Shown here: positions 42,001 to 51,000 of the stretch, in pieces
Layout: each line of letters opens with the position of its first letter
Numbering within the stretch: the first letter of the stretch is position 1
Assembly: GCA_050173015.1 (NCBI GenBank)
Contig: JBFXLE010000015.1
Span: 1-64,000, forward strand
Direction: 5' to 3'
Source: Calditrichaceae bacterium
Lineage (GTDB): Bacteria; Calditrichota; Calditrichia; Calditrichales; JBFXGD01
DNA: 64,000 nucleotides
Made by a program: the position numbers

Positions 42001-45000
42001 CGCCGCAGGTGGCGTGACATTTCGCGCAGTCTTTCGTAAAACCCGCGACCATCGCGTCATCAGTTCTGAGATCCATTCCACCCGATCGCACTTCAAATCT
42101 CTGGTGATAGCCTTCCTGAGTGAGATGCAAACTTGTTTCAAAATTTGACACTTGCTGCGAATGGCAGGGACCACAATAGGTCTCAGCATCTGTTAAAGAC
42201 GGATATGGCACTAAATTATTGTGCGCGTCCGTTTTGGTAAATTCTTCAGGATTACCTTTATGGCAAGCGGTACACCCTAGATTCCCGTGTGTGGAAGTAA
42301 GAAATTCGGTTTTTACAAAAACACGTTCCCATGCCTCAACCTGAGGCACTGTGCCGCCTCAGCCCTCGCCGGATTCACCGCCGGTATCGGGAAGAGGATC
42401 GGCAACCTTGATAAGTAAATCTTTGTCTGTATGACAGCTGACACAACTGGTTTCATCCACAGAAGCGAATTTCTTCGTTTCTACCGGATATTTTTCTTCA
42501 CATGCTGTCATCCATGTGACCGCGAAAACGAAGAGGACAAGAAGAACAATTTTTCTAAACATGACCTTATCCATTTTTTGTGTTTATATAAATAGTTAGT
42601 TTAATCATAGCAAAAAACAAACCAGGCTCATCACCTGAGCCCGGTTTATACAACATTTATAATTAAGAAAGATCAAACACCCATCTTATGGATTAACTCC
42701 GGTTGTTACCGGGTAGTCATGACCGGTTGCTTCGCTGAATGGCGCTACTCCGCCTCTTGCCGCTGTGCTCTTTGTCCATGACATGATGCCATGTTTTAAA
42801 TTGACAGCATTATATCCAAGAAGATTCAAGGCCGTAGTAGCGATACCACCGGTATGCCCTGTATAACAATATACAACAAGGAGGCGAGTCGGATCAATCT
42901 TTTTTAAATTATCTTCACTGGCGATTTCTTTCCAGGGAATATTAATCGCGCCCGGAATATGACCGATAGCATAATGGTCAGCGGAACGTACGCTTATGAT
43001 CTGTGGATCATTACTGGTATCACCATCATTGATCACTCCATGAAGAACATCCGCATTGTAAGTTGCAGACCCTAGTGATGCATAAAGATCAGCTGCCGCC
43101 AGCATAATTTCATCAGCATTTGTTGATGAACTGAATTCCGGATTAGCCAGTTCATATGTTGAGGATGCATTAATTGTTGTTTCAATTTCATAATCAAAAC
43201 TGGTCGCTTCACTGAACGGCGCTACTCCGCCTCTTGCCGCTTCATCTTTGGTCCAGTCCATAATACCAAACTTTAGATTGTAAGCGTCATAACCAAGCGC
43301 GCGCAAGATCGTTGTCGCGACACCACCGGTATGGCCAGTATAACAATAAACGGCGATTTTTCCATTATTCGGGATCGCGGCGATTCTCGCGTCAAGAGCT
43401 GCAAGTTTTTCAGTTTTCGCGATATCCCTCCAGTTGATATTGATCGCGCCCGGTATATGCCCGGCTTCATAATGAGCAGCGCTTCTGACACTGACTACCA
43501 CATAATTGTTTGAATCATCACCATCATTAATATTGTCATACAAAACCTGAGCTGTCATGATAGGAGTAACAGCTACATTTACGCTAGCGTCCACAATCGG
43601 CTGGAGTACATCAAAATCACTTGTAACCGTGCTGCTGCCGCCGTCATCGCTGTCATCAGAACAACCGATAAACATGGCAAACATTAGAGCAAAAATGAAG
43701 TACATTAATTTTTTTACCAACATGATAAACCCCTCGCAATTAAAAAGTTAATATTAAAAATAATGGAATAAGGCTCTTTTCTCCCTCCCCCTTGTGAAAT
43801 TATTATCTTTATTGATGCAAAGGGTGTGCCAACCAGCAAAGCCTTAGTGAGTACCGTTAACTTTCTGTTTTGTTCTCGTGAAAAGCGCGGCTCAACAAAG
43901 GCATATTGAAACAAAATGGTTCACACTTTCTTAAGTTGATTGATAAATATGGGGTTTTCCGATGCAACCAAAGCTTGAAACAAACTGTTTCAAAATGCTA
44001 CTTGAAACGGTTTTTGAAACACAGGAATAACTATTCACCATCAATGAGTTCAACTGGTACGTGAAGTGGCATGGATTTTTGATTTTCTGTATATTTCACG
44101 GCATATCTACTATCATAAAGTGATTTAAAATGAAAACAATTTTATGTTTTGCGGCACATCCCGATGATCTTGAATTCGCATGTACAGGAACTTTACATAA
44201 ATTTTTAAAAAATGGATATGAGGCTATTTTCGTCATATTGACAAATGGAGAAAACGGCTTTAAGGCAAAAAGCGATTCCCGTGAAGAGCGTGTCGAAACC
44301 AGAAAAAAAGAACAGCTTGAAGTGGCAAAAAAAATGGGGCTGAAAGATGTTATTTTTCTGGACAAAAAAGACGGCTTCCTTGAATACGATGAAAATTTAC
44401 GTCGTAGCTTAGTTCAAATCATAAAGAAATACAGGCCTGAGATTATCTTTTCTTTTGATCCCGCTAACAATGAATTTGACAGTCTTAATCTTTTCCACCG
44501 GGATCATCGGACCGTCGCTATTGCCGTTTTTGACGCCTGCTTTGCCGCTAAAAACAACCTTATGTATCCCGGATCTCAGCATAAAGTCGAAAAAATTTAT
44601 TTCTTCGCGACAAATAAACCCAATCATTTTGAAGATATTTCTGATTTGATTGAATTCAAACTTGAACTTCTTCGATGTCATAAATCCCAGTTTCCGGATT
44701 TTGTAAAAGTCGAAAAGTACCTTAAGGAAAGGGTTTCCGTCAGTCACGGCTCGTACCAATATTGCGAGGCATTTCGTGTCATTGAAGTGAGACAGCTGAC
44801 ATAAGTCATCTTTCCGTAAAATTGCCTTTTTATCCCGCGGCAATGCCGCTGTCGTAAATTGCGCATAGGTGATGAATCCAATGCTGATGGTTAGCGGTAT
44901 TTCATAATAGCGATAAAAAAATGCCCGATGATATCATCTTCTGATTTACCACCGGGCATTTTAGACTAGACCCAAAAACACATAAAAGTTTATTTCATCA

Positions 45001-48000: not shown

Positions 48001-51000
48001 ATAATCTCTGTTAACCGCTGTTTTTCTTGAACCGTAAGCATCATCAAGGACCTTATCACAGGCGATGGCCATTTTGCAGCAGGTTCTGACATGTTCGATA
48101 AAATGTATTTTTACATTATCTGCCAGCAGGGTAAATGGAATGGATTTTAACTCCGCGTTTGTCCAGTTTCTGTATTCCACCGCTTCTGCCCAGCACGCGA
48201 TGACTTTTTCCCTTAAATGTTTTGCTTTTATTTCATTAATTTCAGGCAGTAATTCCAAAACCTGGTCACTCATAAACAGTCCTTTCATTAATTATATCGC
48301 AAATTGAATAAAATTATAATCCTAATTATTTACCACTTCCCCCGTCGTCTCCACAAGAGCGAAAATGAACCATCCGGGATAACCGATAGGAAAATATTGA
48401 ATCATCAGAAAAATAATACGATTTTCCTGTTTTTCCCTTACTAAGGACACGAGTATCGTGTCCCTGCTCATCACTCTTTTCTCTTAACGCTCTTAAATTC
48501 TCACTTCCTGCTTCCTACTTCTTACTTTTTGTCTGAACTATGATTCGCCTGATTAATTGAAAACTCTGATTTCCGGTTTCTTAATCATCCCAATCATTAA
48601 ATCATCTTCATCCACCAGAGGCGGACAGGTCAAAGTTCAGACCATTTTCTTCTTTTATCTTAAATTCCACCCGACGCCGGAGGTGTCGCATTTTTGCAGA
48701 ACAGGGATTCCCGGTGTAATTGTACGACCCCGACGGGGTCGCGGTATGTTGCGGGGTCTGTTTTTCTACAATAATTACATCCCTTCGGGATTAGAGATTC
48801 AATTTTTCGCCCGGCTCGCCCTACACTTAACTCTTAACTCTTTTCTCTTAACGCTCTTAAATTCTCACTTCCTGCTTCCTACTTCTTACTTTTTGTCTGA
48901 ACTATGATTCGCCTGATTAAATGAAAACTCTGATTTCCGGTTTCTTAATCATCCCAATCATTTAATCATCTTCATCCACCAGAGGCGGACAGGTCAAAGT
49001 TCAGACCATTTTCTTCTTTTATCTTAAATTCCACCCGACGCCGGAGGTGTCGCATTTTTGCAGAACAGGGATTCCCGGTGTAATTATACGCCCCCTACGG
49101 AGTCGCGGTATGTTACGGGGTCCGCTTTTCTACAATAATTACATCCCTTCGGGATTAGAGATTCAATTTTTCGCCCGGCTCGCCCTACACTTAACTCTTA
49201 ACTCTTTTCTCTTAACGCTCTTAAATTCTCACTTCCTGCTTCCTACTTCTTACTTTTTGTCTGAACTATGATTCGCCTGATTAAATGAAAACTCTGATTT
49301 CCGGTTTCTTAATCATCCCAATCATTTAATCATCTTCATCCACCAGAGGCGGACAGGTCAAAGTTCAGACCATTTTCTTCTTTTATCTTAATTTCCACCC
49401 GACGCCGGAGGTGTCGCATTTTTGCAGAACAGGGATTCCCGGTGTAATTGTACGACCCTTACGGAGTCGCGGTATGTTACGGGGTCGGCTTTTCTACAAT
49501 AATTACATCCCTTCGGGATTAGAGATCCAATTTCTCGCCCGGCTCGCCCTACACTTAACTCTTAACTCTTTTCTCTTAACGCTCCTAAATTCTTACTTCC
49601 TACTTCTCACTTCCTGTCATCGGGCCCGTCGTACTCTACATCGGTTGGATGGATTTTACGCATGGGCTTATATCTCAGTTTTTCCTCATAAACATGCGCC
49701 ACCAGACCGGGAACCCTGGCGATCATAAAAAAGGCGTTTGCCAGCATGGGATCAAAATCCATTTCACACAGCAGCGCCGCAATCGCGCCGTCCACATTTA
49801 ACGGTAAAGATTTTCCTGTTTCCATTTTTAGCATTTTGACAAATGCATTAACCATCTGAACATAATCCCCGGCTATGCCCAGCTCATCAGCAATTTTGAA
49901 CAGTTTTTTTGTGCGTGGATCATCAGTGTGCAACCGATGGCCAAAGCCAGACAACCGTTTCTTGATCGCCTGGTAATCATCGATTACGCTTTTTGCCGCC
50001 GCGTCAAAACTTTGGCCGTCGTTTTTCACCAGATCCATTCCCTGACGAAGAATATGCATACAATCTTCGATCGCGCCTCCATGGTACTTGGATATTGATA
50101 AAATTCCGGCTGCCACAGCCGCGTTCATCGGCGCCCCGGTAGAAGCGACGGTCAGCGCGCTTAATACCGACGGCGGAGTTGTTCCATGATCTACGGATGA
50201 TACGAGAATACTCTCTATCATTTTTCCAATATTCTCTGAGGGCATATCCCCTTTGAATAAAAGGTAAATCATCTGTGCATAGCTCACCTTGCCCATTAAT
50301 TCATCCAGCTTATAACCTCTGACTGAAAGATTATTTGGTTCGACTTTTGTTATGGCCGATTTCCAGTGAAGATCAGACATGATTGTCTCCTGTATTTCGT
50401 TGATTATTCAATAGTCCAGATTGAAATGTTATCCGTTTATAATCACTAAAAATTACACCTTCTCAAAAAGCTCCATTGCCTCGTCTCCATATTTTTTATG
50501 GATACGGATCGTATAAATATCATGGACAATGTAATCCTTGGCCAGCATCACCAATCCTGAATTTGCCGTCCATACCGCGTTACAGGTACCGTCCTCAAGA
50601 AAATGTCCGACAATGACCTTTTTATCATCAACAATGAGGGTGATTCTCCTTCCGCCCCGTTCCAGACGGATATGATGTTCTCGCCCGTGAGGGAACTCTT
50701 TCCCGATTCCAAAATACTTCTTCCCAAAATGAACGATGGAAATCCTTACGCCATTCTTCTCTGCCAGTTTCAGACTTTCGCTTATCTCTTCAACTTCCTC
50801 ATCCCAAACCGACAAATATAGCTGTTTGCTGCTCTGTCCGATGAATTCATTCACTTTGCGGAGAATGGTATCGCGGTCCGCAATATTCCAGATATAATTA
50901 TCCGACAGCTGCTCCTCGGTGTAAACCTTATTCAGCTTATCGCTAAGCTGATCAAGGGTATGCATATAATCTCCCTTCAACCGTGAAATAATCTCATCAG

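Follow-up and report, generated by a model that had tools for sequence, protein, structure and literature searches.

A candidate CO2-fixing route for lysine breakdown through (S)-homocitrate in a Calditrichaceae bacterium and other uncultured microbes

The known exits from 2-oxoadipate proceed through a 2-oxo acid dehydrogenase and glutaryl-CoA dehydrogenase (GcdH), or through HglS to D-2-hydroxyglutarate. Among the closest relatives of the system reported here is the alpha-aminoadipate pathway to lysine, whose first half employs homocitrate synthase, aconitase, a Lys4 homoaconitase and homoisocitrate dehydrogenase (PMC3556520). According to the same source, fungal homoaconitase interconverts only homoaconitate and homoisocitrate, and therefore a second dehydratase is needed. 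The PrpD enzyme of the methylcitrate cycle is likewise described there as acting on an isomer that aconitase cannot use (PMC3556520).

We analyzed a window of 64,000 nucleotides (contig JBFXLE010000015.1, positions 1 to 64,000) from a Calditrichaceae bacterium, in which the initial annotation had recognized an operon of lyase-like, HD, dehydrogenase and PrpD-like genes. All four are indeed present on the minus strand. The unit is headed by a TrmB-family regulator (50453..51220, minus strand; PF01978 and PF11495), whose position is kept in relatives. It continues, also on the minus strand, with a citryl-CoA-lyase-family protein of 257 amino acids (CCL; 49607..50380; NF004866 and NF004869 passed), an HD-fold protein of ~178 amino acids (47737..48273, first ATG at 48288; PF01966, 24.7 bits), an IDH/IPMDH-family beta-decarboxylating dehydrogenase of 372 amino acids (46458..47576; PF00180) and an MmgE/PrpD-family protein of 455 amino acids (44990..46357; PF03972 and PF19305). 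A divergent gene for CitF (citrate lyase alpha, a CoA/ACP transferase) is carried on the plus strand (51451..52995). The inverted repeat that follows the PrpD-like gene (44918..44962; 16-nucleotide arms, 88% complementary) is a possible terminator between convergent genes.

Between the CCL and HD genes are three tandem copies, 96-97% alike, of a 364-nucleotide dispersed repeat (48467..49558), which yields 189 blastn pieces spread over 38 of the 54 contigs. A genome of the same genus (G031) holds ~50 nucleotides of this repeat at the corresponding site and no more, and the tandem array is a strain-level insertion outside the pathway. These repeats, TrmB and CitF were absent from the initial annotation. 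A promoter scan of the locus performed no better than shuffled sequences (15 versus 15.9), and the sole Rfam match scores below its gathering threshold. In RNA run X1, which contains 0.08 of the sequence words, two contigs of 193-196 nucleotides match within the PrpD-like gene, which demonstrates neither expression nor co-transcription.

From genes, families, motifs, linkage and co-inheritance, all established directly, we infer each substrate, the (S) configuration and the direction of a route in which this unit and an unlinked Lys4-type homoaconitase probably convert the 2-oxoadipate that arises when lysine is broken down to 2-oxoglutarate plus acetate. Lysine would reach 2-aminoadipate by the LAT or saccharopine route and P6C dehydrogenase (P6C-DH), and then 2-oxoadipate. 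The dehydrogenase would combine 2-oxoadipate with CO2 and NADPH to form homoisocitrate, a reductive carboxylation that is uphill at low CO2. Homoaconitase would dehydrate this product to cis-homoaconitate, which the PrpD-like enzyme would hydrate to (S)-homocitrate. CitF would transfer CoA from acetyl-CoA to (S)-homocitrate, and CCL would cleave the resulting (S)-homocitryl-CoA to 2-oxoglutarate and acetyl-CoA. The net conversion would be 2-oxoadipate + CO2 + NADPH to 2-oxoglutarate + acetate + NADP+, with no ATP spent in this CitF/CCL variant, and the route would amount to the first half of fungal lysine synthesis in reverse.

The pathway had been termed an orphan with no clue to its substrate, but the gene neighborhoods and the motifs of the active site indicate the homocitrate series as the most likely one. 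Several observations speak for this assignment: a citrate synthase, an aconitase and an NADP-IDH, all passing their cut-offs, are encoded separately in the genome, as is an NAD-IDH-like gene; the dehydrogenase has a loop resembling that of fungal homoisocitrate dehydrogenase (HICDH); and, in a related locus (L046), a 62% identical dehydrogenase homolog and a TIGR00139 homoaconitase lie inside a complete LysW lysine operon (LysX/Y/Z/J/K and a homocitrate-synthase-like gene). The substrate loop finds S. pombe HICDH (3ty3) as the first of two matches, at E 0.77, a short similarity at motif level only. It reads S-P-I-V in 121 of 124 homologs, with Ile where the Ser-x-Asn isocitrate motif of IDH has Asn. 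The protein reaches no Iso_dh equivalog cut-off, neither that of NADP isocitrate dehydrogenase (191 versus 567 bits) nor those of the HICDH models AksF, AksF2 and NF040855 (best 339 versus 540 bits), and a homology search returned generic names only among the 120 matches listed. Legionella DlpA, the source of its initial label, came up in none of the searches made. Its coenzyme signature (K305/Y306/V312/Y353) is of the NADP type, with Lys-Tyr in 121 of the 124 homologs and Lys-His in 3, not the NAD-type Asp-Ile of T. thermophilus HICDH; the position equivalent to Arg395 of E. coli IDH is not conserved. We propose that the protein is an NADP(H)-dependent homoisocitrate dehydrogenase. The same signature is present in the biosynthetic L046 enzyme, a point against the proposed route.

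Some of these features would also suit a second citrate/isocitrate arm of the kind found in the reductive TCA cycle, converting 2-oxoglutarate and CO2 to oxaloacetate and acetate. The NADP motif resembles that of E. coli IDH, IDHs are among the top PDB matches of the dehydrogenase, CitF passes an equivalog cut-off and CCL passes subfamily cut-offs. However, a complete TCA set already exists in the genome, the dehydrogenase has an HICDH-type loop lacking the IDH Asn, the aconitase-family partner passes the homoaconitase model rather than the aconitase models, and PrpD would be superfluous for citrate. We consider this arm very unlikely. About equally improbable, and if anything slightly more so, is a reversed citramalate-type route acting on 2-oxobutyrate or another 2-oxo acid, in which carboxylation would give 3-methylmalate, which would yield citramalate and then pyruvate and acetate. 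Known citramalate and citramalyl-CoA lyases fall within the HMGL, CitE and ICL families, which would accommodate such a route. Both (R) and (S) enzymes are described in PMC8307300. Against it stand the invariant Ser96 loop, which is of the tricarboxylate type and not the Leu-Leu of IPMDH, the Lys4 type of the aconitase and the linkage to lysine genes. The Arg85 residue of Thermus HICDH has reportedly been the subject of a published study.

The homoaconitase (C25:56202-58169) had been annotated as a single-chain LYS4-type enzyme, which is borne out by its TIGR00139 score (884 versus 530 bits) and by the presence of large and small domains (PF00330 and PF00694) in one chain. The context in L046 supports interconversion of cis-homoaconitate and homoisocitrate by an enzyme of this type. 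Its separation from the operon had been raised as an objection, which is resolved by its linkage in other phyla; the gene shares a locus with pathway genes in 58 of 80 loci of related genomes. The PrpD-family protein, which scores far below the PrpD equivalog cut-offs (88 versus 950, 86 versus 575 and 63 versus 458 bits), is our proposed hydratase for the conversion of cis-homoaconitate to (S)-homocitrate. Of 69 loci with CCL or CitE, 60 also encode a further hydro-lyase, which is PrpD in 55 and a second, altered aconitase in 5; neither occurs in any of the 4 loci with HMGL, ICL or synthase. We considered whether the altered aconitase replaces PrpD; this holds per locus (88 with PrpD, 8 with the altered aconitase, none with both) and fails per genome, since G006 and G062 carry both.

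CCL scores above the cut-offs of two PRK06224 subfamily models (279 versus 245 and 271 versus 212 bits), matches PDB 6hxp at E 2e-60 and keeps the catalytic His/Asp/Arg residues; it is proposed to be an (S)-homocitryl-CoA lyase. CitF passes TIGR01584 (537 versus 501) and is proposed to serve as an acetyl-CoA:homocitrate CoA-transferase. A CitDEF complex was rejected, as neither CitE nor CitD adjoins CitF; genome-wide, PF03328 gives only a 22-bit match below its cut-off, a CitD-E query gives zero tblastn matches, and no dedicated CoA ligase for the route was found. Across loci, five cleavage systems exchange as the end module: CitF with CCL, CitD-E with CitF, an SCS-like ligase with CCL, CaiB with an HMG-CoA-lyase-like protein, and an ICL-family protein (the accompanying tree is a quick version, built after random removal of 22 of its 110 rows and limited to loci that have a module). 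PrpD and HD accompany the citrate-type lyases and are missing beside the HMG-CoA-lyase and ICL types, a pairing that fits (S)-homocitrate chemistry. The annotation had taken condensation through oxidation as the natural direction, but cleavage is favored because what is exchanged is in every case a C-C lyase together with activating enzymes.

The same substrates could nonetheless be handled forwards, with CCL condensing acetyl-CoA and 2-oxoglutarate, CitF or the HD protein freeing (S)-homocitrate, and the products being CO2, NADPH and 2-oxoadipate, the last proceeding to glutaryl-CoA or 2-aminoadipate. We regard this direction as unlikely, although it has several points in its favor. GcdH adjoins the operon in L051, immediately after PrpD, and in G085, G086 and G092, where P6C-DH/LAT also flanks it; SucA and GcdH, the usual exit for 2-oxoadipate, are present in this genome, which makes the proposed route dispensable here; and the core enzymes run forwards in L046, as they probably do in the seven relatives that pair LysX with a synthase-like gene. 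The L051 arrangement and the presence of GcdH in 25 of 50 carriers also fit the forward direction. On the other side, GcdH is missing from the remaining 25 carriers and LysX from 45 of the 50 as well as from this genome, and in known pathways citrate lyase and the ICL-family lyases operate towards cleavage. Moreover, CCL does not fill a synthase gap, because G001, G013, G032 and G038 have both CCL and a synthase-like gene. A lysine operon that contains CCL and HD but no homocitrate synthase was absent from 8 of 8 LysX loci, drawn from 151 genomes of the class to which G074 belongs.

The proposed breakdown of lysine has its upstream genes in this genome, which encodes LAT and P6C-DH above cut-off and a saccharopine-type pair. 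The placement of the operon between GcdH and P6C-DH/LAT in G085, G086 and G092 also speaks for this reading. P6C-DH occurs without a GcdH or HglS match in 12 of the 50 carriers, including single-chromosome G074; a P6C-DH match is absent from 16 of 50 other carriers, and within the phylum the gene does not set carriers apart (11 of 13 carriers versus 11 of 17 non-carriers). Lysine-catabolic neighbors are seen in only 7 of 80 loci. As previously annotated, DAP-pathway genes are present (LysA and DapF above cut-offs). LysW-dependent aminoadipate lysine biosynthesis was rejected for this genome (97.5% complete), in which neither homocitrate synthase nor a LysX-strength match was found. Leucine synthesis was dismissed as there is no HMGL-like gene (just two other aconitase-family genes were sought), and phosphonate chain elongation as there is no PEP mutase, the family giving one weak match below cut-off; both absences agree with the annotation. 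The methylcitrate cycle was rejected for lack of PrpB and for the low PrpD scores. A tricarboxylate route distinct from that cycle and from this genome's lysine synthesis is supported.

Co-inheritance of dehydrogenase and homoaconitase, also claimed initially, extends to 71 phylum genomes: both occur in 53, neither in 15 and one only in 3, although kin are not independent. The dehydrogenase ortholog is found in 54 (G055, at 44% identity, was dropped) and homoaconitase in 55. PrpD is present in 44, every one a dehydrogenase carrier, HD in 44, CCL in 45 and CitF in 33, of which 32 carry the dehydrogenase; CitF is within ~6 kb on the dehydrogenase contig in 23. The eight dehydrogenase carriers of family f4 lack PrpD, HD, CCL and CitF genome-wide, a pattern representing one or two events. 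This family had been cited as an objection, and it proves to have a different lyase module. In favor of the proposed route, all 5 of its HMGL-type loci read have a putative carbonic anhydrase gene placed between those of the dehydrogenase and the lyase. Since this gene takes the place of HD, a bolder and far less likely reading is that the HD protein hydrates CO2; the carbonic-anhydrase family is seen in one lineage only and was not found in this genome. The HD protein is co-inherited with PrpD and citrate-type lyases. Its model (pLDDT 92.6) is closest to the YhaM HD domain (Z 16.2, rmsd 3.1, 159 aligned; next Z 10.5), with a Foldseek match at E 6e-5. The HD fold is present and the His-Asp metal dipeptide is absent, Ala replacing His before the conserved Asp; Atlas and fold searches named no function.

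The gene set occurs in varied forms in many uncultured microbes; the genera Caldithrix, Melioribacter and Ignavibacterium, which have cultured members, are also among the records. We give somewhat better than an even chance that it represents a widespread CO2-fixing lysine breakdown via (S)-homocitrate that was reassembled repeatedly with different lyases, with an ATP-free CitF/CCL hybrid here. A literature search, covering main texts and papers largely outside subscription journals, found no description of such a route. If it is correct, 2-oxoglutarate would be the form in which lysine enters the TCA cycle, at the cost of CO2 and reducing power, which would be useful for sediment bacteria that degrade protein. 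Large unassigned enzyme families would gain functions, and the implied new activities are NADPH-linked 2-oxoadipate carboxylation, a PrpD-family homocitrate dehydratase and a homocitryl-CoA lyase. In Planctomycetota, Verrucomicrobiota, Ignavibacteriota and Calditrichota, genes now annotated as ATP-citrate lyase or as citrate lyase, and taken to indicate reductive TCA autotrophy or citrate use, could then be misread.

The proposed route shares with the alpha-aminoadipate pathway a Lys4-type homoaconitase, an S. pombe HICDH-like loop and two separate hydro-lyases; it differs in lacking homocitrate synthase and the LysW system, in using a PrpD-like enzyme for aconitase, in ending with a lyase and in its NADP-type motif, where T. 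thermophilus HICDH is of the NAD type. Reductive TCA citrate cleavage (by citryl-CoA synthetase and citryl-CoA lyase, PDB 6hxp, or by ATP-citrate lyase) and CitDEF draw on the same CCL and CitF families and follow the same logic of carboxylating, isomerizing, CoA-activating and cleaving, whereas the substrate here is probably one carbon longer and CitF is paired with CCL, without CitE or a dedicated ligase. The 2-methylcitrate cycle (PrpC, PrpD, aconitase and PrpB) similarly combines a citrate-synthase-fold C-C enzyme, PrpD and a second hydro-lyase, but PrpB is missing here, the PrpD-like protein scores far below the PrpD cut-offs and a dehydrogenase is present, an enzyme that cannot oxidize the tertiary alcohol of 2-methylisocitrate. 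Finally, the known 2-oxoadipate exits start from the identical metabolite and their genes sometimes share one island with this set, but they release CO2, whereas the route proposed here would fix CO2, consume NADPH and deliver a five-carbon TCA intermediate.

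The genes examined here are encoded on the minus strand in the order TrmB (50453-51220), a citryl-CoA-lyase-family protein (CCL; 49607-50380), an HD-fold gene (47737-48273), a dehydrogenase of the IDH/IPMDH family (DH; 46458-47576) and a PrpD-family gene (44990-46357), with CitF placed divergently on the plus strand (51451-52995). Three copies of a 364-nt repeat (48467-49558) separate CCL from the HD gene. In the same-genus genome G031 the gene order is identical and the repeat copies are lacking. The repeat contains short GC-rich palindromes, yields 189 blastn pieces on 38 contigs of the genome of origin (G000), including 10 pieces of at least 300 nt, has no match in Rfam, and by its appearance is REP/MITE-like. 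Elsewhere in the window (37081-43723) are multiheme cytochrome, porin-like and rhodanese genes.

The initial annotation reported this operon together with a single-chain Lys4-type homoaconitase (HACN) on another contig (C25:56202-58169), an observation that is confirmed by the genes at their positions and by a HACN score above the TIGR00139 cut-off. The claim that HACN is unlinked to the operon holds only within Calditrichota. A HACN scan returned 452 relatives in 606 stretches, and 58 of the 80 loci kept carry DH, PrpD or HD. Likewise, among the 80 loci kept from a DH scan (at least 591 relatives in 600 stretches), 42 include a Lys4-type HACN, with a small-subunit piece only in L097. DH and HACN agree in 68 of 71 phylum genomes (53 with both, 15 with neither), where HD and PrpD each occur in 44, both restricted to DH carriers, and CitF occurs in 33, 23 of these within about 6 kb of DH; these genomes and the locus sets overlap by a few members, and kin are not independent. 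Upstream of HACN on C25 (L001:4924-9931) lies a mevalonate cluster in which HMG-CoA reductase and a GHMP kinase form one 750-aa fusion protein, and HACN is divergent from the decarboxylase gene of this cluster in G000 and in three genomes (L266-L268) of f4, a Calditrichota family with HMGL-type loci.

The substrate most probably belongs to the homocitrate series. One operon of a relative (L046) combines a 62% DH homolog with a TIGR00139 HACN, LysX, LysY, LysZ, LysJ-like and LysK genes, and a homocitrate-synthase-like gene just below its cut-off (406 versus 414). The DH passes no equivalog and therefore forms a separate family. Of 124 homologs, 121 share the loop sequence S-P-I-V, and the best PDB match of the DH loop is S. 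pombe HICDH, at a weak E of 0.77; the position compared is Asn in IDHs and Leu-Leu in IPMDHs. In Thermus HICDH the Val is replaced by an Arg, a residue with a role in isocitrate use. DH residues Lys305, Tyr306, Val312 and Tyr353 correspond to E. coli IDH Lys344, Tyr345, Val351 and Tyr391, which are described as NADP determinants in PMC10574006 and PMC6313988; Thermus HICDH has Asp-Ile where the DH carries this NADP-type motif.

In seven relatives (7 of 11 clusters of these genome sets) a synthase-like gene adjoins LysX, and HACN and DH are absent from the stretch read. Such synthase-like genes fall below the TIGR02146 cut-off in 4 of 4 tested. All seven genomes encode the DH, which suggests that these organisms can use the core to make lysine. 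In the LysW clusters of L197, L200, L202, L203, L209 and L210, lysY and lysZ are separated by a class-II glutamine-amidotransferase-like gene, and no LysK was seen in the stretches read. A lysine operon containing CCL and HD was encountered in none of the 8 LysX loci sampled from 151 genomes.

Citrate-synthase-fold and CitE lyases take substrates of the (S) series, and the HMGL and ICL families those of the (R) series. According to PMC3556520, fungal homoaconitase is limited to interconverting homoaconitate and homoisocitrate, the (R)-homocitrate step being carried out by aconitase, and (2S,3S)-methylcitrate requires PrpD. An extra hydro-lyase is therefore expected wherever the lyase is CCL or CitE, but not beside the others. 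CCL or CitE is present in 69 of 176 loci, of which 55 have PrpD, 5 have a second, altered-motif aconitase, none has both, and 9 have neither within the stretch covered. Where HMGL, ICL or synthase is present (4 loci), PrpD and the altered aconitase are both absent, the (R)-type cases amounting to three or four events, and the eight DH carriers of f4 lack PrpD, HD, CCL and CitF genome-wide. As a counter-case, genomes G006 and G062 hold PrpD plus altered aconitase. This aconitase-family enzyme, fused or in two subunits, has Ala-Arg-Asp in place of Thr/Ser-His-Asp (L027, L031, L048, L056, L060, L198, L206, L212). In L021 the PrpD gene is in two frames (275 + 204 aa), reflecting a frameshift or an assembly error.

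The end modules take the form of CitF plus CCL (G000), fused CitD-CitE plus CitF, succinyl-CoA-ligase-like beta/alpha subunits plus CCL, a CaiB transferase plus an HMG-CoA-lyase-like protein, or an ICL/PEP-mutase-family protein (G023). They swap among close DH relatives, as evident from a quick tree that pairs L024 (HMGL) with L023 (CCL) as sisters at 97. The G023 gene (L204:8459-9391), situated between DH and HacA/B, is a candidate CoA-free (R)-homocitrate lyase. A ligase-beta, ligase-alpha and CCL cluster also occurs in G051 (L247) and G052, genomes without DH or HACN, and may act on another substrate or be a remnant.

The HD protein, whose distribution follows PrpD and CCL/CitE, has a YhaM-type HD fold and lacks the motif His. 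At least 90 of 92 homologs retain each of His66, Asp105, Lys108, Arg130, His131, His150, His155, His172, His173 and Asp175 (183-aa ORF numbering). Our first guess at its role is a repair hydrolase for an (S)-branch side product, for example homocitrate lactone, followed by a thioesterase and then a CO2 hydratase.

We lean towards a reverse, lysine-catabolic use of the route, in which 2-oxoadipate from lysine, CO2 and NADPH would give 2-oxoglutarate and acetate by way of homoisocitrate, cis-homoaconitate and (S)-homocitrate. With CitF and CCL, the forward direction would join free acetate to 2-oxoglutarate without energy input, which favors cleavage. The end modules are lyases with activating enzymes in all but L046, and CCL coexists with a synthase-like gene in G001, G013, G032 and G038. 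Among 50 carrier genomes, for which completeness is not given, 45 are without LysX and 12 have P6C dehydrogenase without a GcdH (glutaryl-CoA dehydrogenase) or HglS match. Three Verrucomicrobiota genomes have the operon flanked by GcdH and P6C dehydrogenase/lysine 6-transaminase, and in f4, 5 of 5 HMGL-type loci read have a putative carbonic anhydrase (PF20393) between the DH and lyase genes.

Forward use we consider unlikely. Against the reverse reading, lysine-catabolic neighbors are scarce, being found in 7 of 80 DH loci where a rough estimate, not from shuffles, puts chance at about 2. P6C dehydrogenase occurs just as often outside the carriers (11 of 17 non-carriers) and is unmatched in 16 of 50 carriers, including all seven Zixibacteria; GcdH is present in 25 of 50 carriers, directly after PrpD in L051; and the L046 DH shares the NADP motif. 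An ordinary exit is also available in G000, which encodes GcdH (E 1e-137 to PDB GCDHs). Because the whole route is estimated to lie near equilibrium, conditions may set its direction. Close to the module there are also genes resembling FAD-linked 2-hydroxy-acid dehydrogenases (L041-L043, L212, L112, L113, L120, L127; also in archaea), whose products could repair 2-hydroxyadipate formed by DH reduction without CO2.

G000 is equipped for lysine degradation with a lysine 6-transaminase and a P6C dehydrogenase, both scoring over their cut-offs, a saccharopine dehydrogenase/AlaDh-PNT pair, and a 380-aa saccharopine-dehydrogenase-family protein whose nearest structure, PDB 3abi, is a lysine dehydrogenase. 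It makes lysine via DAP (LysA, DapF), and carries a eukaryote-type citrate synthase, mitochondrial-type aconitase and NADP-IDH above cut-offs, an NAD-IDH-like gene just below, and SucA. At 97.5% completeness, no LysX, CitE, PrpB, HglS or HMGL-like gene was found; neither was a LeuC/LeuB-like paralog in the whole genome, so that, with the HMGL-like gene also missing, leucine synthesis looks absent.

A literature search for this route found no description, and it belongs to none of the known pathways tested. What this window adds is an ATP-free hybrid of CitF with CCL, a pattern of (R) versus (S) modules, and L046 as an anchor. In its working the route would resemble the arm of the reductive TCA cycle that cleaves citrate, extended by one carbon.
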